A DNA stretch of 64,000 bases from Candidatus Eiseniibacteriota bacterium. Lineage in GTDB: Bacteria; Eisenbacteria; RBG-16-71-46; CAZAMP01. Numbering within the stretch: position 1 is the stretch's first letter; each line of letters begins with the position of its first letter. The DNA is taken from contig OZ245046.1 in the NCBI GenBank assembly GCA_965224245.1, positions 4,896,001 through 4,960,000 of the forward strand, in the 5' to 3' direction. The notes beneath the pieces are model-generated. The model was not told the origin of the DNA. It saw only the letters and a list, made by a program, of their open reading frames with translations, and made no database searches. This document shows, one piece after another, positions 16,462 to 34,177 of this stretch. The translations under genes and the position numbers were made by a program.

Positions 16462-16896
16462 GTGCCTAACTACAGGATCCGCGCAGAGCTGAAGCCGCGA
16501 AGTGGCGAAGCGATCGAGCTCGACCACATCCTGAGCCTATCGTGGAGGGCCTGGCGTAGCCCGGGCCCCAACAACAACCTCGGGCAGGTGGGGCACCAGG
16601 TCGACGAGATCGTGCTGACCCGGCACAAGTCGCTGCCCAATGGCGAGCAGCCGGCGGAGGACAGGACGGTCGCGGCTGCCGCGGCACGCGAGCAAGACGC
16701 CTTCCACTCCGGCGAGATCACGGTGGCACGCCCGGAGGATCCGACGAACCCGGTACAGACGATCCGCTTCGACGAGGGTCACGTGACGTCGATCCAGCAA
16801 GAGATCAACGGCAGCCGGTTCGTGGAGACGCTCAACATCGCCGTGAAGTCACTCCAGGTCGACGACAACATCTTCGAGCCGGAACCGGCGGAGTGA
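16462..16896 (+). CDS. hcp: T6SS tube protein Hcp/TssD-like
   Basis: 144 aa, follows the sheath genes; GGAGG RBS; 'SGEITVARPEDPTNPVQTIRFDEGHVTSIQQEI...ETLNIAVKSLQV' is a typical Hcp/TssD C-terminal half. Confidence 0.75.
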   Translation: MPNYRIRAELKPRSGEAIELDHILSLSWRAWRSPGPNNNLGQVGHQVDEIVLTRHKSLPNGEQPAEDRTVAAAAAREQDAFHSGEITVARPEDPTNPVQTIRFDEGHVTSIQQEINGSRFVETLNIAVKSLQVDDNIFEPEPAE

Positions 16897-18362
16897 GTGT
16901 CACCGGTGCAGTGGCCCCCGGCGCGGACTGTCGGTTTCGGGTACTCGTGGACGACGATCGGCTCGACGGCATCGGCGACGTGACCATCGTCGAGGATCTC
17001 CGGGGCGGGGTGGATGCCAGGTTCGATCTGTGGCTCGACCCGGCGACTCGCATCCGGCCTGGCCAGCGCGTGACGGTTCGGGTGGAGCGGGTGGGCAGGA
17101 TCAACCACGACACCGAGATCCACACGTGGTGCCGTACCACGTCGACCTTTCGGGTCTCGGGCGAGCGGGCAACGTGCCGTACGCACGCCACCGATCCCCT
17201 CCGCGTGCATCCGCCGCAGCCGGAGTTCCGGAGTCATGCCGGCGGTGTCGGGTTGCTGCAGCTCGCGCGCGCGGTGGCGCGTCTGCCGAAAGGCGTGCGC
17301 GCGTCCGCCCAAGACGTACCGGTGCGCGCGGCCTGGCTTCTGCAAGCCGACGAATCCGCGGTCGAGTTCATGCACCGGGTAGCGGCCGCGATCGACCACG
17401 TCGTGTTCTGGAGTCGAGACGAGCTGACCGCGGCGATGATCGGTGACGACCGCGAGGACCACGAGCTCGGCGACTTCGGCGAGGACGACGTTCTGCGAGC
17501 GACCTACGTGGAGTCGGTGGGCCTGCATGGGACCAACACGACGTGGATCCATCCGGAGACGCGATCGGTGCAGCAACGTCGTCAGGACCCGCACCGCTCG
17601 GGCGGTACGATCGCAACGCGTCGAAGCGCGTGGCGCGCCGGCGGCGCGGTCATGCCGGCACCGGCCGATGGTCTGTGGATGGCGACGACATTGTCGACAC
17701 ATCGGCCGGACGTCCGCCTCGGGTCGCGGCTCGAGATGGAGAACGGTCCCTGGATTGTCCACCGCGTCGAGCATCACCTCACGGCTCGCGGCACCTACGA
17801 GAACGTGATCCACGCCGTGCGCGCGGTGGACTGGGGACGTCCCGCGTACGCGCTGACGCCGTTGGTGATCGGCCCGCTGCACGCGACGGTGGTCGACAAC
17901 GAGGATCCGGCTGCTCTGGGACGGATCCGTGTCGTCCTGCTCGAGGATCCTGACCGGCGTCCGACACCGTGGGTGCCTTACGGATTTGCCTACGCGGGTC
18001 CAGCACATGGGATTCACTACGTTCCCGAGAAGGGCGACCTGGTCCTCGTGGATGCCGAGCCCGGCTCGCCCGAGCGTCTCTACGCTCGAGGCAGCATCCG
18101 AAGCGCTCGGTCGCCGGTGCCCGACGATTGGCAGGTCCGTGGTAACGCGATCAAGACCTGGGTGACCCGGGGCGGCAGCGGTGTCGTCATCGACGACGGG
18201 AGCCGCACCCTCCGGGCGACCGCGGGCGCCATGCTGAGTGTGAACGCCGACGACCTGGTCGCCGAAGCGACGACTCTCCGACTCCACGCTGCCGGGAGTC
18301 TGGCGCTCGACGGTGACGAGCACGTCGCGATTCGGTCTCGCCGTCGCATCGATCTGGGGTGA
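16893..18362 (+). CDS. vgrG: VgrG/TssI spike protein
   Basis: 'WLLQADESAVEFMHRVA' (gpD-like); 'ATVVDNEDPAALGRIRV...PWV...YAGPAHGIHYVPEKGDLVLV...PERLYARGSI' (gp5 OB-fold); short beta-helix tail. Confidence 0.85.
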   Translation: MSVTGAVAPGADCRFRVLVDDDRLDGIGDVTIVEDLRGGVDARFDLWLDPATRIRPGQRVTVRVERVGRINHDTEIHTWCRTTSTFRVSGERATCRTHATDPLRVHPPQPEFRSHAGGVGLLQLARAVARLPKGVRASAQDVPVRAAWLLQADESAVEFMHRVAAAIDHVVFWSRDELTAAMIGDDREDHELGDFGEDDVLRATYVESVGLHGTNTTWIHPETRSVQQRRQDPHRSGGTIATRRSAWRAGGAVMPAPADGLWMATTLSTHRPDVRLGSRLEMENGPWIVHRVEHHLTARGTYENVIHAVRAVDWGRPAYALTPLVIGPLHATVVDNEDPAALGRIRVVLLEDPDRRPTPWVPYGFAYAGPAHGIHYVPEKGDLVLVDAEPGSPERLYARGSIRSARSPVPDDWQVRGNAIKTWVTRGGSGVVIDDGSRTLRATAGAMLSVNADDLVAEATTLRLHAAGSLALDGDEHVAIRSRRRIDLG

Positions 18363-22783: not shown

Positions 22784-23608
22784 ATGAAACGACCCGGACA
22801 GCGCCTCGACGCGTTCCTCGCGCACGCCGGCGTCGGATCTCGTTCGGAGGTCCGCCGCCTCATTCGCTCGCGCCGGATCGTCACGGTCGACGGCGAGACG
22901 TGCATCGATCCCGGGCGTCACGTGTCGACCGAGACGATCGCGGTCGACGGCACGATCGTCGCCGCCGCGCCCACCGACGTCGTGCTCCTGATGCACAAGC
23001 CCCTGGGACACGCGTGCAGCCACGACGTCGCCGAGTCGCCCACCGTGTTCGAGCTTCTGGACGACGTCTACACGGGTACGTCGCTCCAGTGCGTGGGCCG
23101 CCTCGACCGCGAGTCGTCCGGCCTCCTCGTGCTCACCGACGACGGTCAGCTCAATCACGCGCTGACGCATCCGAAGCGCAAGGTGCCGAGGCGGTATCGT
23201 CTCGTCTACGAGGGCGAGCTCGTGCCGGACGCCGTCCAGCGGGTGGCGGAAGGGATCGTGCTCCGGGACGACGAGCGGCCGACGAGGCCGGCGGTGCTGA
23301 CGCTCGGGGAGGCCGTCGCCGGGGCCGACGCGTCGCCACCCGGGCACGCCGCGACGATCGTGCTCAGCGAGGGCCGGTACCATCAGATCCGGCGGATGAT
23401 CGCCGCGCTCGGTGGACGCGTCGTGTCGCTGCACCGGGATCGGATCGGTCGGCTGGAGCTGCCGGCCGATCTCGCGCCGGGCGAGTCGCGCCCGGCGACC
23501 GCGGAGGAGCTGGAGCGTCTCGTCACGTCCGACCAGGTCCGGGGCACCGTCACGTCGACGCGCGACGACCCATCGCCATCATGCGAGTGCAAGCCGTCGC
23601 GCGAGTGA
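22784..23608 (+). CDS. rsuA: RsuA-family rRNA pseudouridine synthase
   Basis: S4-like N-terminus 'RLDAFLAHAGVGSRSEVRRLI'; 'HKPLG', 'VGRLDRESSGLLVLTDDG', 'EGRYHQIRRM'. Confidence 0.9.
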   Translation: MKRPGQRLDAFLAHAGVGSRSEVRRLIRSRRIVTVDGETCIDPGRHVSTETIAVDGTIVAAAPTDVVLLMHKPLGHACSHDVAESPTVFELLDDVYTGTSLQCVGRLDRESSGLLVLTDDGQLNHALTHPKRKVPRRYRLVYEGELVPDAVQRVAEGIVLRDDERPTRPAVLTLGEAVAGADASPPGHAATIVLSEGRYHQIRRMIAALGGRVVSLHRDRIGRLELPADLAPGESRPATAEELERLVTSDQVRGTVTSTRDDPSPSCECKPSRE

Positions 23609-23619
23609 CCTCCGGAACG

Positions 23620-25647
23620 TCACTCGGCCAGGACGACGCGCACCGCCCGCACGCCAGGGCTCCCTCGCACGAAGTACACGCCAGGAGCCACCCGGTCCCC
23701 GCGGTCGTTGCGCGCATCCCAGTCGAACCGTCCGCCCAGCCCCGGCACGGTCGATCGCACGACGCGGCCGGTCGCGTCCAGAACCTGAACCGATCGAGGC
23801 GGTCCGGTGACGCCGTCCAGGACCACGCTCACCCGCTGCGTGAACGGATTGGGGACCGCACGACGCGTCACCGACCGTTCATCGACCACGGGCCCCTCCA
23901 CGTCGAGCGACGACAGGAGGTCGTCGATCACCCCGGTCATCAACAGGGGGTCGTAATCACAGGATCGGTACGCGACCCTCCCGTCGGGGTCGATGATGAA
24001 GTCACGCGGGAACGGAGATGCGCAGTTGTGAATCAGGTAGTCGACGTACGTCGCCGAGGTCCCCGCCGGATCGGCCAGGATCGGGAACGTCACGCCGAAC
24101 TGATCGGCGAAGTCGGCCGCGATCGCGGCCGACTCCCCCCGGTCGATGCCGAGCACCACCACGCCGTCGGCCTGGTACGTCTGCCAGATCGTCACCTCGA
24201 GGTCCGAAAACTCCGGACCGCACACCGGTCACCAGGATGCGAAGAAGGCGAGAAGGACCACCCGGCCTTCGTAGTCGGACAGCGTGTACGTGAGTCCGTC
24301 GATGCCCGGCAACGAGAAGTCGGGAGCGTCGTCCCCGACCTGGAGCGTCGTCGGGTTCCCCTCGAGATAGACCTGCGTCATCGGCTCGTCGGGGTCGTTG
24401 CTGGCCAGGCGCAGCGACGCCACGTAGTCCTCGCCGCCCGGGGAGGTGAACGTGACCACCACGTCGCGGGATTCGTCTTCGCCGAGCATGAAGGGGCCCG
24501 TGTCCACGCTGAACGCCCCGGCGCCGGACCCCCCGAGGTTCACACCCGTGACGTCGAGCACGCCCACGCCCGTGTTCGTCACCGTGACGATCGCGTCGGC
24601 GCTCTCGCCGGCGGGTACGTCGTCGGCGACGAACTCGTCGGGAGTGGCGCGAATGTCCGGCGACACCTCGGCGCCGTACTCGTACACACGGAACGTGGAC
24701 CAGTCGGCGACGTAGATTCGCGTGCCCTCGGCCACGAGACCCATGGCACGATAGGGCGTGTCCTCCCAGCCGACTCGCGTCGGAACGGACGGGATCGAGA
24801 CGTCGACGACCGAGAGCTCCTCCCACTCGGCCACGTACAGAAGGGATCCCGAGAGATGGAGGTTGAACGCCGTCAGCGACGTGTCGTAGGTGCCGACCAG
24901 GACCGGCAGATCCGGATTCGAGAGGTCGTACACGTCGGCGCCGTCGGTCCCGACCGCCGTGGCCAGCAGTCCGCCGTCGGACGTGATGTCCTGCGCGACG
25001 CCGGATCCCGCGACGGATGCGAGGTGAACGGGGCTCCCGGGCGCGGACACGTCGAGGACCGACACGCCGCCCGCGCCGTCGGCCACGTAGAGCCGATCGT
25101 CCACCAGCACCATGCGGTAGGCGTTCTGGACGCCGTCCGTCACGACGCTCACCGGCGCCGGGTTCGCCGGATCGGTCAGGTCGAGCACCTGGATCCCGGC
25201 GTCGTGTCGCGCCGCGTACAGCGTCGTACCGTTTCGCAACACGCCCTCGATCTGGATGCCCGGAAGATCGATCGTGTCCACGACGTGGGGATTCGTGGGA
25301 TCCGAGAGATCGTACGTGCGGAGACCGTTCTCACGGGCTCCGCAGTAGCCGTGCGCGGCGCCCAGCGCCATTCCGTAGTATGCGACGGTCTGATCCGATC
25401 CGACGAGGCTCGGCGCGCCGGGATCGCCGACGTCGTAGACGCTGAGTCCCCCGGTTCCGATCACGTAGACCGTGTCGCCGACCTTCTCCGCGTCGAGGTA
25501 GTGCACGAAGAACGTCGGCCTGAACGCGCCGAGGAGCTCGACGCCGTCGCTGGCCTCGGCCCCGGTGCCGAGCAACGCCAGTGCACCGCCGACGAGGACG
25601 CGCGGCACGATCCGGCCCGCGCCCGGGCTGTTCGAACGGGATGACAT
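23620..25647 (-). CDS. exported LVIVD-repeat / Ig-like / TlpA-AhpC thioredoxin-fold protein with FlgD-like tail; putative selenoprotein (UxxC)
   Basis: ORFs 24229..25932 and 23620..24225 are in the same frame and joined by TGA at 24229-24231, reading '[18 protein letters not shown]'; hairpin just downstream; ATG at 25647 with GGGAGG RBS and a signal peptide. Confidence 0.85.
24201..24219 (-). promoter_or_regulatory. putative bacterial SECIS element
   Basis: mRNA UGA-CCGGUGUGC-GGUCCG-GAGUUUU-CGGACC: 6-bp perfect stem starting 10 nt after the UGA, with a G at the start of the loop. Confidence 0.65.
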
Positions 25648-25861
25648 GGCTCCCTCCCGGTTCCGGCCGGATCTCGGACTGCGCGACGCGGCGAGGCCGT
25701 GATCGCGCTGGACGGGGCGAGGCGCTCGGGAATCGAGAAGATCGTACCACGCGGAGGGGGCCAGATCGTCCGGGCCCATGCACAACGGCCTCGGCCGAGG
25801 CGACCGAGAAGCGCTCTCGTTCCGAGGCCGCCGATGGAGACGATTCACCGCCGAACGGCGA

Positions 25862-28138
25862 TCACGGGAGCCGCACGACCCGTCGCACGTCCGTGCGTGC
25901 GCCCGTGTCGAGGCGGACGACGTACACCCCACTCGCGATCACGCGGCCCCTGTCGTCGAGACCGTCCCACGCGAGGTCGTGTCGCCCGGCATCGAGTCCT
26001 CCGGCGAGCAGCGTCCGGACCGACCGCCCGCGCACGTCGAAGACGCCCACCCTTACGTCGGTCGGCCACTCGAGCGTGAACGCGAGCGTCGTGGAGCTGC
26101 GGAACGGGTTCGGTCGGCTCACGAGACGCGTCACGACGTCGCTCACCGGCGGGGTGTCGAGCGCGCCGCCGAGCGCGTGAGCCGGCAGCACGACGATGTC
26201 CCCCGGATAGCTGCCGTTCGTCAGCATCACGGTCTCCTCGTCGGCCGCGATCTGCGACAGCACGAGCCCGGGCTCGGTGTACTCGCCCACGAGCACCGGG
26301 GCGATCGGGTCGCTCCAGTCGATCACGTAGAGCGTGCCCGATGCGGTGCCGGCGTAGACGATCTCCCCGGCGCCGGTGGGCGCGCCTCCGTCGGAGGACA
26401 CGACGGCCAGCGTGCGTGCGCCCACGTCGATGGAGGCGACCTCGGAGCCGACCGCGAAGTCGTATCGCACGACGCGTGCGCCCGGCTCCACCGAGCTGCC
26501 TAGGTACACCTGTTCGGGAACCGAGGAGGGCGCGACCGACTCGACTCCCGTCAGCGGCGTCACGTGGTCGATCACCGGCGCGTCCGGATCGCCGACGTCC
26601 CAGCGCGCGGTCTGGCTGGTCGTCGCGACGACGGCGAACGTGCCGTCCACGTGAAACTCGTTCACCGCGTTGGGGGTCGCACCGAAGCCGCGGTCGAAGG
26701 GGGCCTCGGGCGTCGAGACGTCGACCACGTAGAACCCGAGCGGCGACGAGCTCGAGCGCACGACGCGGCTGCCGTCCGGCGTCGCGTCCACGCTGGAGCT
26801 GAAGCCGGGAAGCGATCCGACGATCGCCGGGTTCGCGGGGTCGGTGAAGTCGACGATGTCGAAGCCCGCGAGCCCGCCGGCCACCGCGAGCGATCGCTCG
26901 GTTGGCCCCCCCGCCGCGACGCGCAAGAGCTCGTGCTTGTAGTGGCGGAGCCGCTGGACGGCGGCCGCGCCCGTCTCACCCAGAAGGACCGGGAGGCACG
27001 GATTGATCACGTCGTACACGCGGATCCGCCCTCCGGACATCCCGCCTGAGTCGGACATGAGCATGTGGTTGCCCATCGGGCGGGTGAGCGCCGCCGGCAC
27101 CACGAACTCGTCGGCGAGGCGAGCGAGGGGGCTCGGCGTCATACCGTTGCCGTGTCGATACAGCACGAGCTCCGGGCTCGTTCCACCGCGCCGGGTGAGG
27201 AAGCGATCGCCGTGCGAGGAGACGCGACGGACACCGTGGTGGCCGCGCAGGGTTCCAATCCGTTCGAGAGCCTCCGACAGCACGTGAACGAGATCCTCTC
27301 CGGCGGCGATCGTGGACGTCCCCGGGGCCCGCGCCACGGCCACGATGTTCGTCAGGTCGATGTTCTCGCCGAGCGGGATCGGAGGCGACGTTCCGTACCG
27401 CTTGACGCCGGCGCCGGTCGCGAGAACGATCTCGTGGTTACCGTTCAGGGCGACGTCGCGCACCGTGCCGGGGACGGTTGTGACGAGGCTCGTCGGGGGC
27501 TCCATCGTGAGATCCGAGACGACGAGCACGGCGGACCCGACGAAGGCGGCAGTGCCGGCGTGGGCATCGTGCGCGAGGGTCGCCTCCTCCGCAAACGGGA
27601 TGGCGGCCGACGTGAGGCTCGGGCCGCACGGCGAGGTGAGACGCACGACGACGGCGCCCAGGCCGTACTGCACGACGAGGTCGTTCCCGGACAGAGAGAT
27701 CGACCCGACGTCGCCCACGGGGCCGAGGTCGATCGTCTCGACGAGGGTCGGGTTCTCGGGATCGGAGAGGTCGTAGCGCCTCACGACGTCCATACCGGCG
27801 ACCCAGAGGCACGTGCCGTCGGGCGAGGCCACGACGTCGAACGCCTCGTCGCCGAAGCTCCCGATCTGCTCGCCGTCGTCGGCATGGATGTCGACCCCGA
27901 AGTCCCCGACCGCCACGTAGGTGTAGGAGTCCACCGAGACGGCGCCGTACTCGTCCTCCTCTCCGAGCCGTTCCCCGGCCGGGCGCCGCCCGTCCAGGTC
28001 GATCCGGCGGATTCGCCGCGCGTACTCCTCGTAGTCGATGGCGTCGCCCGTGGCGCCGGCCGGCGCGGGCAACGAGATCGTGGCCGCCGCGGCCACGATG
28101 AGGGTCAGGGAAAGAACGAGATGGGACTCGAGACGCAT
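25862..28138 (-). CDS. exported LVIVD-repeat beta-propeller protein with FlgD-Ig/T9SS-like C-terminal domain
   Basis: Signal peptide; repeated 'YDLSDPENP', 'VDFTDPANP', 'IDWSDPIAP'; tail '[12 protein letters not shown]...[11 protein letters not shown]...WDGLDDRG...SGVYVVRL'. Confidence 0.85.
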
Positions 28139-28240: not shown

Positions 28241-31200
28241 CTACGGCAACGCCACCAGCCGCCAGAGCTGGCGCGGGACCGCTCCCGTCACCGCGAGGAT
28301 GGGCGGATACCGATCTCCGTCGTCCACGTAGTCGAGGGACCGCCCGACCCCGCCCCCGCTCGTGCGGAGCCGGTACAGGTAGTCGCCGCCCAGCTCCACC
28401 GCGGTCAGCGTCCAGTACTGGTCCGCATCGTCGGCCACATCGACGATCGTGGCGGGCGCGCCGCCGTCTCCCCCGTCGATGACGCGGTCGACCCCGAGCA
28501 CCACCGGTGAGAGGCGCAGGAAGCCGGTCGTGCCGACCGGACCGAGCCGCCACCGGGACGCGTCCGAGTCGTCGGTTCCCATGAACAGAAGCGGCGGCTC
28601 GATCGCGCTCACGGTCAGGCGCTCTCCGGACACCAGCGTGGCGTTCGTGATCCGGTACACGTCGCCGGCGTCGAGATCCTCGCGCGGGCCATACTCGATC
28701 ACGTAGCCGTTCATGTCGTCGGTGTCGAGCTGGGTGTCGTTCCAGCCGCTCGTGCGGAGCTCGAGGAAGTCGGAGTCCCCGACGACGTCATTCGGACGAC
28801 CGAACGCCCAGGCCGTGAACGCGAACGGCTCGCCGGTGACCCACCGCCACCCGCCGTCGGGCTCGGCGGAATCGACGTCGCCGTCCACCTGGTAGCCGCC
28901 GATCCACACCGGCTTCGTCGCGAACGGCACGAGCGCGTCCACGAACGCGTTCTCGTCGGCGTCGGCGATGCATGCGAGATAGCCGCGCAGGCCCAGGTGT
29001 GTCCGGGCGGCCGCGTCGGCCCGTGCGGCGGGCCAGGTGATGTCGAGCTGCTCGACGAGCTCGTAGTAGTGACCGTTGGCCCCGTTCAGGACGACGTTGC
29101 CGAAGAGCACCTCGGTCGTGAAGGTCCAGTTCACGCCGGCGATCAGCGGATTGCCGGCGAGGTCGGTGACGGAGCCCGTCACCATCGCCGTGTACGAGCG
29201 CCCGCCTCCGAGCGGAGCCGCCGGCGTGAAGGTCGCGCTCGCGCCGACGGCGTCGACGGTGCCCGCCACCGCGCCGTCGGGGCCGGTCACGAAGAACGAC
29301 GAGCTGGTCACCGTGGCCGGGTCGATCGGCTCGTCGAACGTGACGCTGACCGTCGCCGACACCGGCACGTCCACGGCGCCGTTCGGGGGATCGAAGTCGA
29401 TGGCGAGGGGGCCGCGATTCGTCTCGAACGTCCATACGGCGCCCGCGGCGATCGGGCTGCCGTCGAGGTCGGTGATGTCGGTCGTCAGCGATGCCTCGTG
29501 GACCGACGCGCTCTCGAGCGGCGCGGACGGCACGAAGGTCGCCGTGGGTCCGCTGACGTTCAGCGAGCCGTCCACGTCCACGCCGTCCCGGCGCACGCGG
29601 AACGACGTGGGCGTCACGCTGCCCGGATTCACGTCCTCGGAGAACGTGGCCACGACCGAGGCGCTCTCGTCCACGTCGGTGGCGCCGTCGGCCGGGGACG
29701 TCTCGATGACGCGCGGCGGATCGGGGTCGAGCGTCGTGAAGCCGGCGTCGAACGCCACCAGCGGATTCCCCGCGAGATCCTGGATGCCGGTCGTGAGCTC
29801 GACGGTGTACGCGGTGAAGCCGTCGAGGTCACCGGTCGGCGTGAACGTGGTCGTGCTCCCGACCGTGGAGCGCGTGCCGTCGACCGGCGGCGGGCCGCCG
29901 GTCGCGCGCACCCGGAACGTGCCGGCGGTCACGCTCCCCACGTCCTCGGAGTACGTGACCGTGATCACCGCGTCGAGGGGAACGTCCACGGCGCCGTCGG
30001 CGGGGTCGATGGTGAGGACGGTTGGGCTCTCGGTGTCGACGGGCACCGTGGTGAAGCTCCAGATCACGTCGGTCTGCAGGGGGTTGCCCGCGAGGTCGGT
30101 GATGGCGGTGGTCAGGGTCGCCGTGTACGGGATGTCGCCGTCGAGCGGCGCCAGCGGCGTGAACGTGACGGCATCTCCGAACGTGGACACGGCCACGTCT
30201 CCGGCCACCGAGCCGCGCGGACCGGTCAGCATGACGCTTCGCCCGTCGACGGTGGCGGGGTCGATCTCCTCGGAGAACGTCGCCGACACGACGACGTCGA
30301 GGGGCACGTCCACCGCGCCGTCGACCGGAAACCGCTCCAGCACACCGGGGGCCTCGACGTCGGCGACCGTGAACGTGGACGTGAAGACCGCGGCGAGCGG
30401 GTTGCCGGCGAGGTCCTCGATGCCCGTCTCCAGACGAACGGTGTACGTGGTCGCGCTCGCCAGCGCCGCCGTCGGATCGAACGTGGCCATGTTCCCGGAC
30501 GCGGACACGCTGCCGGCCACGGTCCCCGTGGGTCCTTCGAGCGAGAACGTCGACGGGGTCACCGATGCTGGATCCACGTCCTCGGAGAACGTCGCCGTGA
30601 TCGAGACGCCCGGGGCCTGATCCACCGCGCCGTCGGCCGGTGAGATGCCGGTGACGCTCGGCGGCGTCACGTCGGCGATCGTGAACGACCAGACGACCTC
30701 CTCGGCAAGCGGGTTGCCGACGACGTCGGTCACGGCGCGGGTGATGCGGGCGGTGTACGCCGTCTCGCCGGCGAGGTCGGCCGAGGGTGTGAACGTGGCC
30801 GTGTTTCCGGCGGCCGCCGCGGCGCCCCCGACGGCGCCGCCGGGACCGGTGAGCGTGAACGACGCCGGCGTCACCGTGGACGCGTCGATCTCCTCGGAGA
30901 ACGACGCCCGCACGACGACGTCGGGGGCCACGTCCACGGCCTCGTCGGCCGGCTCGGTGCTGGTGACGACCGGCGGCTCGGTATCGACGAACGCGGTGGT
31001 GAAGGACCACTCGACGCCGGCCTCGAGCGGGTTGCCGGCGAGATCGCGGATGCCGGTGGTGATGCGCGCCGTGTACGCAGTCGAGCCGGTCAGCGGCGCC
31101 GACGGCGTGAGCTGCGCACTGGAGCCGCTCGCCTCGACGACGCCGGCGACGTCGCCGCCCGGGCCCGAGAGCGTGAACGTCTCGGCCGTCGCGCTGGCCG

Positions 31201-33382
31201 GATCGATCGGCTCGGAGAAGCTCGCGCTGACCACCACGCCGGGCGAGACGTCCACCGCCTCGTCGGCCGGCGACGTGGCCGTGACGCGGGGAGGCTCGAC
31301 GTCGCTCGTCGTGAACGACCACGTGAACTCGGCGGCGAGCGGGTTGCCGGCGAGGTCGGTGATGCCGGTGGTGAGCCGAGCGGTGTACGTGGTCGCGCTG
31401 GCCAGGTCGTCCGTGGGGTCGAAGGCGATGGCGCGGCCCGCGGCGTTGACGCCACCGGTCACCGCGCCGCCGGGGCCGGTGACGCGGAACGTCGACTCGG
31501 TCGCCGTCGCGGGATCGATGTCCTCGGAGAGCTCCGCGCTCACGATCACGTCCAGCGGCACGCCGGTGGCGCCGCTCGCCGGGAGCGTGGTCACGACCGC
31601 GGGGCCCTCGACGTCGACCGTCGTGAACGACCAGGTGACGTCGGCGGCGAGCGGGTTGCCGGCGAGGTCGGTGATGCCGGTGGTGAGCCGCGCGGTGTAT
31701 GTCGCGTCGCTGGCCAGGGGTCCGAACGCCTGGAACGTCACGGCGCTGCCGCTGGCGTCGACGCTGCCGGCAACGGCACCGCCGGGGCCGATCAGCGTGA
31801 ACGTGGACGTGGTCACCGACGCGGGGTCGACGTCCTCGCTGAACGCGGCCCCCACGACGACGTCGAGCGGCACGTCGATCGCGCCGTCGAGCGGCTGCGT
31901 CGCGGTGACCGAGGGGGGCACGACGTCGGCGGTGGTGAAGCTCCACTCGACGTCCGACGCGAGCGGGTTGCCCGCGAGGTCGGCGATGCCGGTGGTGAGC
32001 CGCGCGGTGTACGTCGTCGAGCTGGCGAGCGTCGCGGTGGGCGCGAACGACGCGCTGCTGCCGCCGGCTCCCACCATGCCCGTCACGGATCCCGCGGGAC
32101 CCTGCAGCGTGAACGTGGTCGCGTCGACCGTGCCGGGGTCGATCACCTCGGAGAACGCCACGCCGATGGCAATGTCGGGGGGGACGTCGGTCGCGCCGTC
32201 GGCGGGGGTCGTCCGCGTGACGGTGGGCGGATCGACGTCGCTGAGCGCGGTCGTGACCGACCAGGTGACGTCGGCGCCGAGCGGGTTGCCGGCAAGGTCG
32301 GTGATGCCGGTCGTGACGCGCGCGGTGTACGCCGTCTCTCCGTCGAGAAGGGCGCCGGGCGTGAACGTCGCGGCGGCCCCCGCCGCGTCGATCGTCCCGG
32401 CGACCGCGCCGCCGGGTCCGGTGAGCGTGAACGTCGACGGAGTGACGCTGAGCGGATCGACGTCCTCGGAGAACGTGGCCACGAACACGGCGCCCGGCGA
32501 GACGTCCACGGCGCCGTCCTCCGGCGACGTGTCGACGACCACCGGGGGGTCGACGTCGACGATCGGCGCGGTCGTGAACGACCAGACGACGGGCTGCGCG
32601 AGGGCGAACCCGGTGAGGCTCCGGACCGACGTCGTCAGCCGCGCGGTGTAGGTGGACTCGCCCGCCAGCGGCACCGACGGCGTGAACGTGGCGACGTCCC
32701 CGCCGGCGCCGGTTCCTCCGGACACCGCGCCCGCGGGGCCGGTGAGCGTGAACGACGCACCGGTCACCGACGTCGGATCGACCGCCGCGCTGAACGTCGC
32801 CCGGACGACCGCGTCCCACGCGACGCCGGTGTCGCCGGCGTCCGGATCGGTGGCGAGCACGTCGAACGCCGGGCGCGCCGCGACCTCGATCACCGAGGAG
32901 TCGAAGCGGCTGGGGTCGGCGTTGGACGTGGCGGTCGCGACGGTGGCCCCGACGCTCACACCGGTGACGTTGCCGCTGACGTCGACCCGGGCCACGCTCG
33001 GGTTCCCGGTCGACCACGTGAGGGCCCGATCGACGCCGGGCGATGCATCCACGACCGCGGCCAGGGGCGCGACCTGACCGACGACGATCCGGAGCGTGTC
33101 CGGCGACACCCGGACGCCGCGCACGCCCTCGTCACGCGGGCTCGTCGTGATGTCGTCCGAGCAGCTGGACCCGATCACGACGGCGATCACGGAGCCGACC
33201 GCGATCGCGACCAGCGGTAGTCGCGCGAGGGGGTGGCGCGCACCGGCCGATGCCGGGCGGGGCGACGGATGCCGGGACGATGCGTCACGGGACGATGGGC
33301 GACGGGGCGATGCGTGACCGGGCCGGTGGTGGCGCTGGCGGGTGCGCCGGGTGTGTCCACGGCGAGAGAGCGTCCACTGCAC
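28241..33382 (-). CDS. large surface lipoprotein: Big_2 + 12 SbsA/Big_5 Ig-like repeats + C-type lectin-like + ricin-like domain
   Basis: Lipoprotein-like signal '...VIGSSC'; 12 repeats of 'PPxVxxTxPADGAxDV...ATFSExxDP...YTARLTTGITDLAGNPL...WSFTT'; 'NGHYYELV..TWPAARADA...WIGGYQ...WRWVTGE'; start chosen at a GTG after GAGGT (uncertain). Confidence 0.85.
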   Translation of the reverse strand: MQWTLSRRGHTRRTRQRHHRPGHASPRRPSSRDASSRHPSPRPASAGARHPLARLPLVAIAVGSVIAVVIGSSCSDDITTSPRDEGVRGVRVSPDTLRIVVGQVAPLAAVVDASPGVDRALTWSTGNPSVARVDVSGNVTGVSVGATVATATSNADPSRFDSSVIEVAARPAFDVLATDPDAGDTGVAWDAVVRATFSAAVDPTSVTGASFTLTGPAGAVSGGTGAGGDVATFTPSVPLAGESTYTARLTTSVRSLTGFALAQPVVWSFTTAPIVDVDPPVVVDTSPEDGAVDVSPGAVFVATFSEDVDPLSVTPSTFTLTGPGGAVAGTIDAAGAAATFTPGALLDGETAYTARVTTGITDLAGNPLGADVTWSVTTALSDVDPPTVTRTTPADGATDVPPDIAIGVAFSEVIDPGTVDATTFTLQGPAGSVTGMVGAGGSSASFAPTATLASSTTYTARLTTGIADLAGNPLASDVEWSFTTADVVPPSVTATQPLDGAIDVPLDVVVGAAFSEDVDPASVTTSTFTLIGPGGAVAGSVDASGSAVTFQAFGPLASDATYTARLTTGITDLAGNPLAADVTWSFTTVDVEGPAVVTTLPASGATGVPLDVIVSAELSEDIDPATATESTFRVTGPGGAVTGGVNAAGRAIAFDPTDDLASATTYTARLTTGITDLAGNPLAAEFTWSFTTSDVEPPRVTATSPADEAVDVSPGVVVSASFSEPIDPASATAETFTLSGPGGDVAGVVEASGSSAQLTPSAPLTGSTAYTARITTGIRDLAGNPLEAGVEWSFTTAFVDTEPPVVTSTEPADEAVDVAPDVVVRASFSEEIDASTVTPASFTLTGPGGAVGGAAAAAGNTATFTPSADLAGETAYTARITRAVTDVVGNPLAEEVVWSFTIADVTPPSVTGISPADGAVDQAPGVSITATFSEDVDPASVTPSTFSLEGPTGTVAGSVSASGNMATFDPTAALASATTYTVRLETGIEDLAGNPLAAVFTSTFTVADVEAPGVLERFPVDGAVDVPLDVVVSATFSEEIDPATVDGRSVMLTGPRGSVAGDVAVSTFGDAVTFTPLAPLDGDIPYTATLTTAITDLAGNPLQTDVIWSFTTVPVDTESPTVLTIDPADGAVDVPLDAVITVTYSEDVGSVTAGTFRVRATGGPPPVDGTRSTVGSTTTFTPTGDLDGFTAYTVELTTGIQDLAGNPLVAFDAGFTTLDPDPPRVIETSPADGATDVDESASVVATFSEDVNPGSVTPTSFRVRRDGVDVDGSLNVSGPTATFVPSAPLESASVHEASLTTDITDLDGSPIAAGAVWTFETNRGPLAIDFDPPNGAVDVPVSATVSVTFDEPIDPATVTSSSFFVTGPDGAVAGTVDAVGASATFTPAAPLGGGRSYTAMVTGSVTDLAGNPLIAGVNWTFTTEVLFGNVVLNGANGHYYELVEQLDITWPAARADAAARTHLGLRGYLACIADADENAFVDALVPFATKPVWIGGYQVDGDVDSAEPDGGWRWVTGEPFAFTAWAFGRPNDVVGDSDFLELRTSGWNDTQLDTDDMNGYVIEYGPREDLDAGDVYRITNATLVSGERLTVSAIEPPLLFMGTDDSDASRWRLGPVGTTGFLRLSPVVLGVDRVIDGGDGGAPATIVDVADDADQYWTLTAVELGGDYLYRLRTSGGGVGRSLDYVDDGDRYPPILAVTGAVPRQLWRLVALP

Positions 33383-33646
33383 GGGTGTCCACCTCGGTGT
33401 CTCGGCCACCGCCCCGAGACGGAGGCAGACGTCCGGGGGTTCCGACGAGGGCGGTGTGGCGGCGGCCGTGGCTGTCTCGCGAGCGTCTACGGCTCGCCCA
33501 TCGGACCGTTCGGCGCGAGAGATGGTCACATTATACGTGTGGGATGCCAAGTCCCGGGCGCGCCGGGGGCGCTGGCGGGTGAATCGCCGGGAAGTGGTTG
33601 CAAGAGACCGGCGGAGAGACGGCACGGGCCGGATCGACGGCGCGTC

Positions 33647-33925
33647 CGGGACGCCGGCGGGGGCCCGGGATGCGGTGGGGCCCCGGGACGCCGGCGGGGC
33701 CCGGGATGCGGTGGGGCCCCGGGACGCCGGCGGGGCCCGGGACGCCGGCGGGGCCCGGGACGTCGGCGGGGCCCGCGACGTCGGCGGGGCCCGGGACGTC
33801 GGCGGGGCCCGCGACGTCGGCGAGGCCCGCGACGTCGGCAGGGCGCGCGACGTCGGCAGGGCCGAGGCGTCGGCAGGGCCGAGGCGTCGGCAGGGCCGAG
33901 GCGTCGGCAGGGCCGAGGCGTCAGC
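33647..33925. repeat. GC-rich degenerate tandem repeat array (about 18-bp and 17-bp units)
   Basis: Units GGGGCCCG(G/C)GACG(C/T)CGGC grading into GGGCCGAGGCGTCGGCA. Confidence 0.85.
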
Positions 33926-34013
33926 GGGGATAGGGACGTCTGCGGGCCCGGGAGCTCGACCCGCCGTGGCACCCCGCTGGGGCCTCAAGTCGCTGCAATA
34001 GTACACTTTACAC

Positions 34014-34042
34014 TTGATTCCGGACTCGGTTTGGGTTACGCT
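34014..34042 (+). promoter_or_regulatory. sigma70-like promoter upstream of the HNH gene
   Basis: TTGATT-N17-TACGCT within a locally AT-rich patch. Confidence 0.4.
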
Positions 34043-34177
34043 CCCAGCATCGATCAGCCCCCGATCGACGTCTCCGATCGCTCCCCGGGTCCACGCCACC
34101 CCCCGGACCAGGCTCTTCCGTGACCGCGCGTTCGTCTCGCCGCCGTCGCGTGACGCGGGTCAGTCGAGGGATCACCC

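Follow-up and report, generated by a model that had tools for sequence, protein, structure and literature searches.

Does an in-frame TGA that cuts a redox motif in two end a gene, or does it encode selenocysteine (Sec)? The question is raised by a locus at 23620..25647 on the minus strand of a 64,000-nucleotide (nt) stretch of DNA from Candidatus Eiseniibacteriota bacterium (GCA_965224245.1, contig OZ245046.1, positions 4,896,001 to 4,960,000), referred to here as the window. Under genetic code table 11, the locus appears as two open reading frames (ORFs) in the same frame, 24229..25932 (−), whose product ends in LLAFFASW, and 23620..24225 (−), whose product begins with MCGPEF from a GTG start. 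Gene callers report the locus as two pieces, one of 472 amino acids (aa) (P0002) and one of 201 aa started from the GTG (P0121). Thioredoxin-fold selenoproteins with a UxxC motif exist in bacteria, as do selenocysteine insertion sequence (SECIS) elements downstream of the Sec codon, and a sequence-only reading of the locus had proposed that the two ORFs hide one exported, multidomain selenoprotein. We found this interpretation to be supported, and each of the checks that it had named against itself, i.e., the Sec machinery of the genome, the homologues, and the letters of the codon, came out in its favor. We put the probability that the locus is a single gene for an exported selenoprotein of 675 residues, with Sec predicted at codon 473, at about 90%.

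A single reading frame with a conserved internal TGA

At the junction of the two ORFs, the letters tgg-tga-ccg-gtg-tgc read W-TGA-P-V-C. The TGA (24229..24231, −, running from 24231 to 24229) is codon 473 and the first position of a U-P-V-C redox motif, exactly at the first cysteine (Cys) position of FASW-x-PVC as had been proposed, and U473 falls on the first Cys of the CxxC motif of ResA. The predicted resolving Cys of the UxxC motif is TGC codon 476 (24220..24222, −), which is invariant in all 13 family members. Translation with TGA as Sec (U), begun at ATG 25647, runs through 675 codons to a terminal TGA stop at 23622-23620, giving the whole coding sequence at 23620..25647 (−). A GGAGG Shine-Dalgarno-like motif lies 5 nt before this ATG (25653..25657, −), and the N-termini of the orthologues fit the start; because of this motif and the signal-peptide-like N-terminus at ATG 25647, we regard the GTG-started ORF 24229..25932 as an over-extension.

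To follow the codon across the class, we searched 206 of its genomes in six frames (E ≤ 1e-36), with BLAST-anchored extraction and MAFFT alignment. Matches were present in 12 of the 206 genomes, and full-length or nearly full-length copies with exactly one internal TGA were found at 12 places in 11 of the 206 (the window's own genome, G000, and G001 [twice], G017, G019, G046, G054, G057, G058, G059, G061, and G065), the G019 copy ending at a contig end. The TGA stood in one shared column in 14 of 16 aligned sequences, comprising these 12 copies, a metagenome contig (L054), and a small paralogue from the window's own genome (L033). The two remaining rows had Cys (a tandem redoxin of G001, FATW-C-AAC) and His (a tandem paralogue of G065, DPH-H-PS-G). 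Cys thus occupies the Sec column in the G001 tandem paralogue, and it does so in many class-level homologues of the domain. The orthologue ORFs are 672 to 696 residues long with Sec at residue 467 to 490, and the terminal stops of 13 family members are TAG (six), TAA (four), and TGA (three), while the internal codon is always TGA. The family falls into two sequence subfamilies, the second carrying FGANW-U-PICxLQAAATDA; regex filters miss its FGANW-U-PIC and include a few chance frames, and the subfamily counts were taken from the BLAST-anchored alignment. In the 13-member alignment (A4), U473, P474, C476, F513, L524, D526, P545, I552, D553, and G556 are invariant, the V of U-P-V-C is V or I among the orthologues, and the redoxin domain keeps a proline loop, P-F/Y-P-x-D.

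The frame downstream of the TGA is under the same kind of constraint as the frame upstream. Between the G057 and G059 copies, the 205 codons after the TGA differ at 12, 7, and 37 sites in codon positions 1, 2, and 3, respectively, with synonymous differences in 36 codons, and the 466 codons before it differ at 14, 8, and 82 sites. Divergence is therefore dominated by third positions on both sides, which indicates purifying selection on the whole frame. The rival account in which a Cys codon, TGC or TGT, was mutated or misread as TGA in a pseudogene or a sequencing or assembly error takes one base change and matches the split made by gene callers, but it is for practical purposes refuted by conservation, since the TGA is shared by 12 copies in 11 genomes, the metagenome contig, and the paralogue, the divergence downstream of it is third-position dominated, three per-run assemblies agree on it, and the corresponding residue is the last one in 17 or more database clusters. 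The per-run contigs (X1 covering 23620-25647, X2 covering 23620-25470, and X3 covering 24139-25647) were assembled separately and show the TGA with 0 differing letters. They belong to a set from four runs of one sample of one study, the fourth run's contigs being without the codon. Because all runs share one sample that may be the source of the window, their agreement is weak support, and the conservation across genomes is the real argument against error.

Several related loci were seen along the way. The Cys redoxin of G001 (G001:C35:25530-25994; L142/L144) adjoins the 3′ side of one of the Sec copies and is 52% identical to the Sec domain. The G065 paralogue (L143, G065:C169:3746-5713) is a stop-free, full-length, four-domain protein in tandem with the Sec copy L136, with His and Gly replacing U and C, i.e., a redox-dead copy. 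Shorter matches with one TGA in G034, G010, and G023 proved to be plain Cys redoxin genes in which the TGA is the normal stop, and a fourth such match, in G024, showed no motif match. A metagenome search with an 8-sequence alignment found TGA at the site in just two of 80 loci, L054 (propeller plus Sec-redoxin) and L094; one pattern of this search was generic for redoxins, and the remaining loci were mostly ordinary CxxC redoxins or lay outside the motif filter. L094 has, at about aa 627 of frame +1, a redoxin with FWASF-U-PTC, and a strong hairpin, GCGCGG-AGUUG-CCGCGC, follows its TGA. A single-protein search for related loci in genome contigs returned just 2 weak domain-level loci. In the window's own genome, an LVIVD frame (G000:C1:991316-991732) and a redoxin-like frame (G000:C1:2466350-2466814) each contain one in-frame stop, TGA in the former and TAG in the latter; these may be ordinary gene ends.

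A candidate SECIS hairpin directly downstream of the UGA

In work on selenoproteomes, the signature of a bacterial SECIS is a small apical loop with a G, placed directly downstream of the UGA (PMC1088965). The sequence-only reading had pointed to a hairpin immediately after the TGA, and we located a candidate at 24201..24219 (−), with an 8-bp stem, GGUCCGGA/UUCGGACC, and the loop GUU. Read from the UGA, the RNA is UGA-CCGGUGUGC-GGUCCGGA-GUU-UUCGGACC (24231..24201); the hairpin starts 9 nt after the UGA, and in both main subfamilies the first base of the loop is a G at a distance of 17 nt from the UGA. It is thus a stem-loop just 3′ of the UGA with a small G-containing loop, whereas the terminal UGA stop of the gene is without such a hairpin.

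The pairing is maintained in register across the family. In a 14-sequence alignment (A3), 88.4% of the 112 cells of the 8-pair helix pair, compared with 22 to 46% when the 3′ partner is slid by 1 to 3 columns. Both sides have changed in five of the eight pairs, the covariation score is 0.533 versus 0.03 to 0.17, and none of 500 shuffles matched the observed pairing. The 19-nt hairpin is letter-identical in G000, both G001 copies (G001a and G001b), and G019 despite just 40 to 52% protein identity, and it includes GGU and UUU codons, which are expected to be rare in such a G+C-rich genome. In the second subfamily, a different hairpin, C(C/G)GCUGCA-GGC-UGC(A/G)GCG, occupies this register, with the variants CGCCGCA...UGCGGCG (G054) and GGCUGCA...UGCAGCC (G058). 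Six of the eight pairs form in both L054 and L033. The Cys paralogue of G001, with nearly the same peptide, GPELSDL, forms just five of the eight pairs and has a degraded hairpin, and 29 Cys-type rows picked by regex, about 5 of them chance frames, form 1 to 6 pairs (mean, 3.3) in the same register.

Selenocysteine machinery and decoding of TGA

The presence of selA, selB, selD, and tRNA-Sec had been named as a check, and all four were found in the same genome, an assembly of 6.94 Mb in 27 contigs that is 97.4% complete. Their scores of 516, 324, 378, and 71.9 bits, respectively, are above the curated cut-offs, and ARAGORN reported a tRNA-SeC with the anticodon TCA. Across the class, selA was present in 182 of 206 genomes (a count that includes the unpublished G083) and in 116 of 121 of good quality; because of this, Sec use is close to universal in the lineage. 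Among the genomes carrying the redoxin gene, 10 of 11 have selA. The selD gene of the window's genome (G000:C1:4218184-4219107; L001) itself encodes a selenoprotein with one in-frame TGA in GAG-U-ASKLGP, and this TGA is followed by GGGCCAGG-GGU-CCUGGCCC, with an 8-bp stem and a 3-nt loop starting with G. The first G of the selD loop is the 21st base after the UGA (20 between), compared with 17 for the redoxin gene.

Decoding of UGA-473 as something other than Sec, either by reassignment of TGA to Trp or Gly or by near-cognate read-through, seems highly improbable to us. Read-through alone would likewise leave the frame open; however, TGA ends the gene itself, in the alignment column that holds the TAG or TAA stop of orthologues, and it also ends the convergent pseudouridine-synthase gene (23606-23608) and the Cys redoxin genes in relatives. 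TGA is not reassigned in this organism. Moreover, UGA-473 is in the catalytic Cys column, the SECIS-like hairpin with its G-first loop is conserved, and the full Sec machinery is present.

Some observations weigh against Sec insertion at this codon. The folding energy of a 71-nt stretch is ordinary (z = −0.97), with 36 of 200 shuffles folding equally well, and an Rfam scan of 24100-24300 at E ≤ 10 returned no SECIS family, just chance-level microRNA and small-RNA matches. The sequences are related, most of the covariation comes from two clades of them, and coding and RNA constraints are partly confounded because the stem lies over conserved codons. The G017 copy forms three of the eight pairs in the common register and has an alternative hairpin, CCGC-GGUC-GCGG, shifted by one base. 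Finally, G054 carries the gene and selA was not found there; that genome is 75% complete.

Domain architecture of the predicted protein

The full-length frame resolves into four domains behind a putative signal peptide, in the order that had been proposed from the letters, i.e., LVIVD propeller, immunoglobulin (Ig)-like domain, Sec-redoxin, and FlgD-like tail, on which Pfam, NCBIfam, and the structural model agree. The AlphaFold2 model, built on alignment A4, has a mean predicted local distance difference test (pLDDT) score of 81.1 and a predicted template modeling score of 0.72. Residues 1 to 32 (25552..25647, −), disordered or helical in the model (low pLDDT; helix at 14 to 26), have the basic N-region, hydrophobic core, and AEA-S of a signal peptide with a predicted cleavage site, and the N-terminus is signal-peptide-like in all 11 orthologues having a complete one. 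Residues ~35 to 325 (24673..25545, −) form an LVIVD-repeat beta-propeller, matched by PF08309 at 66.8 bits (Pfam cut-off, 20.2) and modeled as all-beta from 35 to 325 with pLDDT mostly at 80 to 95; in Foldseek, it retrieved WD40-type propellers of 7 to 8 blades, and PorZ (5m11) was also matched. Residues ~329 to 431 (24355..24663, −) resemble an Ig-like choice-of-anchor-D domain, modeled as a beta-sandwich at 332 to 430. The matches here are to NF012200 (329 to 421; 42.6 bits, below the NCBIfam cut-off of 45) and to the HYDIN/VesB-like PF22544 (343 to 430; 22.9 bits, just below the Pfam cut-off of 25.5). NF012200 is matched by 11 of 13 family members at E ≤ 1e-3, and D418, D420, and E421 in the SNDPDE motif of the Ig-like domain are invariant in alignment A4.

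The thioredoxin-fold redoxin, of the ResA/TlpA type, spans residues ~436 to 580 (23908..24342, −), where the model shows an alpha/beta thioredoxin fold from 436 to 580. AhpC-TSA (PF00578) matches residues 437 to 560 at 83.9 bits (cut-off, 26) and is found in all 13 family members; because this match runs across the UGA, the stop lies within one domain, and the fold continues in frame as the sequence-only reading had stated. Redoxin (PF08534) scores 62 bits (cut-off, 26.6). The nearest sequences in the PDB are 2ls5 (4.8e-19) and Bacillus ResA (1e-15 to 1e-17), and the nearest redoxin fold in a whole-chain Foldseek search is ResA (1su9_B; TM-score, 0.88; root mean square deviation, 2.2 Å). ResA is also the best NCBIfam redoxin model (NF002854; 73.3 bits, below the cut-off of 170), while the TlpA model NF047696 scores 25.8 bits (below the cut-off of 230) and the ResA-like WAxxUGC model NF041054 scores 20.6 bits against a cut-off of 300, the motif here being FASW-U-PVC. 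By NCBIfam, PDB, and Foldseek alike, the redoxin is nearer to ResA/TlpA than to the peroxiredoxins, in line with the TlpA-type assignment made earlier. To judge by its sequence, it would work like ResA/TlpA, although it is filed as neither under the curated NCBIfam cut-offs.

After a low-confidence linker (582 to 602), the protein ends in a beta-sandwich tail at residues ~603 to 675 (23623..23841, −), modeled with lower confidence over 603 to 675 and resembling FlgD-Ig and the C-terminal domains of the type IX secretion system (T9SS). FlgD_ig (619 to 660) scores 20.5 bits, below the Pfam cut-off of 27. Comparison with Por_Secre_tail (TIGR04183/PF18962) gives 18.3 bits, below the cut-off of 23; the C-terminus of PorZ scores 31.8 bits. 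The FlgD-like character assigned earlier therefore stands at a subthreshold score, and we refine it to a probable T9SS-type C-terminal sorting domain.

These boundaries bear on whether the locus could hold two real genes, one for a 472-residue propeller-Ig protein and one for a separate 201-residue protein started from the GTG, which we consider very unlikely. Both ORFs do exist under table 11, and Sec insertion in bacteria is usually inefficient, so that a truncated 472-residue product may be made beside the full-length one. However, the split separates beta1 from the active-site helix of a single thioredoxin fold. The N-terminal piece alone would be without the sorting tail, and the C-terminal piece would have neither a signal peptide nor beta1 nor the first active-site residue. 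The GTG itself is the Val codon of U-P-V-C, a position held by V or I in the orthologues. A single gene hidden as two ORFs, with its TGA conserved and its 675-residue frame divided by gene callers, fits the observations, as had been claimed.

Truncated database entries and the search for a cysteine form

The same division was apparent in protein collections. An indexed search over 5.8 billion clusters yielded 111 proteins with E ≤ 1e-10, 21 of them shorter than 600 aa. Of these 21, 11 (among them the 472-aa piece from the window) have FFA[SNT]W at the end, six end at the equivalent strand (FFATY, IFSSI, YFATF, YFALF, YFATF, and YFGVF), and four end elsewhere. In a HMMER search against 1.84 billion representatives, all eight single-stretch orthologue-like hits (P0004, P0136, P0141, P0147, P0158, P0161, P0196, and P0211) match up to residue 472 and end in FFA[SN]W; the top 150 contain just one more protein of middle length, and it consists of a propeller alone. 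Orthologue-like entries in these two large collections, about 17 to 25 clusters, thus stop at FFA[SNT]W or the equivalent strand, leaving the redox domain and the sorting tail invisible to annotation and to selenoproteome censuses.

Cys versions of the redoxin domain alone are common, but a full-length Cys form of the architecture was not found among the matches of the two protein-collection searches, the HMMER list being filled by giant LVIVD-repeat proteins down to 241 bits, where a distant full-length Cys form could be hidden. Among the 17 hits of an indexed search with residues 432 to 676 and candidate lengths of 371 to 1183, LVIVD and a complete redoxin never occurred together. The G065 paralogue has lost both active-site residues and shows no Sec-to-Cys swap. 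The fusion appears to exist solely in the Sec form, and a natural case for which no Cys version was found is useful for asking what Sec does beyond Cys in an oxidizing compartment.

Predicted export and genomic context

Two T9SS components are encoded in the genome with scores above the curated cut-offs, the sortase PorU at 469.6 bits (cut-off, 420) and SprA at a summed score of 540 bits (cut-off, 200). The gene next to PorU is PorV-like, at 92.8 bits (below the cut-off of 250). An FlgD-Ig-like tail ends several dozen other frames in the genome (>50 to >60). At E ≤ 1e-3, FlgD_ig is recognized in 11 of 13 family members, TIGR04183 in four, and CHU_C in two. On the metagenome contig L054 (16-1377), with the motif FFAPN-U-PVC, a type I dockerin (Pfam E = 6.2e-10) replaces the FlgD-Ig tail. 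The conserved body with exchangeable anchors favors a location outside the outer membrane and is presumably in keeping with the notion for which NF012200 was named "choice-of-anchor". Together, the tail and the machinery suggest that the protein may reach the cell surface through the T9SS.

Two further observations count against the overall reading. Within the family, the tail encoded in the window is the most degenerate, scoring below all curated cut-offs with low pLDDT and a deletion relative to the orthologues; because it is the weakest of the family, T9SS export of this particular copy is less certain. In addition, no CcdA/DsbD reductant, partner, or cytochrome-maturation gene was seen near the gene.

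The best-surviving alternative accepts a genuine selenoprotein and places it in the periplasm, where it would act as a reductase like ResA/TlpA, supplied by a membrane reductant of the CcdA/DsbD type; the degenerate tail of this copy would then no longer be a T9SS signal. ResA, TlpA, and DsbE, the relatives of the redoxin, rely on reductants of the membrane for their activity in the periplasm or outside the membrane, and we know of no extracellular reductant; the degeneracy of the tail points the same way. However, the FlgD-Ig tail is recognizable in 11 of 13 members, the dockerin of another member suggests an extracellular anchor, and PorU, SprA, and the many similar tails are encoded in the genome. 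We consider a periplasmic location unlikely, though a serious contender.

The gene lies in a cluster of predicted surface proteins, together with two genes upstream on the same strand. Of these, the one at 25862-28138 (−) encodes a 758-aa protein with LVIVD and FlgD_ig, and the one at 28241-34099 (−) encodes a 1952-aa protein that has a CopC-like stretch besides its 12 Big_5 Ig-like domains. Downstream, the convergent pseudouridine synthase occupies 22784-23608. Elsewhere in the same genome, at G000:C1 ~4156700-4157400, the small paralogue L033 encodes a stand-alone signal peptide and Sec-redoxin of ~220 aa with FASW-U-VGC and the hairpin GUCCGA-AGUUC-UCGGAC. It adjoins the downstream side of a large LVIVD and FlgD-tail gene (G000:C1:~4153500-4156520), an unfused association of propeller and Sec-redoxin. 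Farther off in the window, an ORF at 16893-18362 (+) has a Phage_base_V/VgrG-type OB domain (49 bits), which hints at a type VI secretion or contractile-injection locus nearby.

Proposed reaction

In the proposed scheme, SelB-GTP and Sec-tRNA(Sec) would bind the hairpin 9 nt past UGA-473, and Sec would be inserted without termination. Judging from the motif and the fold, the product is probably a Sec-based thiol-disulfide oxidoreductase with U473 as the nucleophile and C476 as the resolving residue. The selenolate of U473 would attack a disulfide (or a sulfenate or peroxide) of the substrate, C476 would resolve the mixed selenenylsulfide to give an intramolecular Se-S bond, and a reductant would recycle that bond. 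The propeller and Ig modules could supply substrate or surface binding, while the signal peptide would be cleavable and the C-terminal tail would direct export to the cell surface by way of the type IX system.

Going further, we tentatively suggest, at less than even odds, that this may be an obligately Sec-dependent TlpA-like enzyme on the cell surface, held there through the T9SS or, in some relatives, a dockerin, and performing thiol/disulfide or chalcogen/metalloid redox chemistry beside a substrate-binding propeller, beyond the reach of known reductant systems. If so, it would be the first selenoenzyme among T9SS cargo, and its family would be a systematically misannotated one. Through the locus, selenium use in the class is linked to its large repertoire of LVIVD/T9SS surface proteins.

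Comparison with known systems

In ResA, TlpA, and DsbE (PDB 1su9, 1st9, and 3c71; 2ls5 from Bacteroides thetaiotaomicron), we found the best sequence and fold matches, the W-C-x-x-C context, and the proline loop P-F/Y-P-x-D in common with the protein. In contrast to them, it has Sec for the first Cys, no membrane anchor, a domain fusion, and no cytochrome-c maturation context. Its combination of propeller and C-terminal sorting domain is shared with PorZ, the T9SS component (PDB 5m11), and with the LVIVD-propeller surface proteins with FlgD-Ig/T9SS tails, of which the genome has dozens of paralogues, including that at 25862-28138; unlike our protein, none of the paralogues seen has a redoxin domain.

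Among selenoproteins, the domain type has precedents. The available text of a 2026 inventory of 119 prokaryotic selenoprotein families lists a Prx-like thiol:disulfide oxidoreductase (PF00578, UxxC), a Redoxin family protein (PF08534, UxxC), and UGC-containing TlpA family proteins (PMC13188914), and a Prx-like selenoprotein family is described in PMC1088965. That same text contains no LVIVD, propeller, or T9SS-linked family, and the word "propeller" occurs 0 times in it (PMC13188914). A full-text literature search found no paper joining selenoprotein with LVIVD, or selenoprotein with beta-propeller, thioredoxin-like, and metagenom, although the supplementary tables of surveys could hold such fusions; selenocysteine and type IX secretion came up together in one paper, on vent-plume genomes. 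The earlier claim of an unusual architecture therefore holds with a refinement, in that the Sec-redoxin domain type is already catalogued, while the order of propeller, Ig, redoxin, and sorting tail is absent from the 119-family inventory as far as its available text goes.

The UGC-containing TlpA family, as listed in that text (PMC13188914), and the ResA-like WAxxUGC proteins (NF041054) share with our protein a Sec-carrying ResA/TlpA-type fold but differ in the motif and in the placement of Sec, which is W-U-P-V-C here. The closest likeness is to the Prx-like and redoxin UxxC selenoproteins, which have the same Pfam domain, a UxxC motif with the nucleophilic Sec first, a SECIS directly downstream, and widespread Cys homologues. 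The catalogued families of this kind are, as far as is known, small single-domain proteins, and the stand-alone ~220-aa FASW-U-VGC form in the window's own genome fits them. In the protein described here, by contrast, the domain sits at residues 436 to 580 of 675, between the propeller-Ig part and the sorting tail; the UxxC redoxin selenoproteins thereby gain a multidomain member that is probably exposed at the surface.

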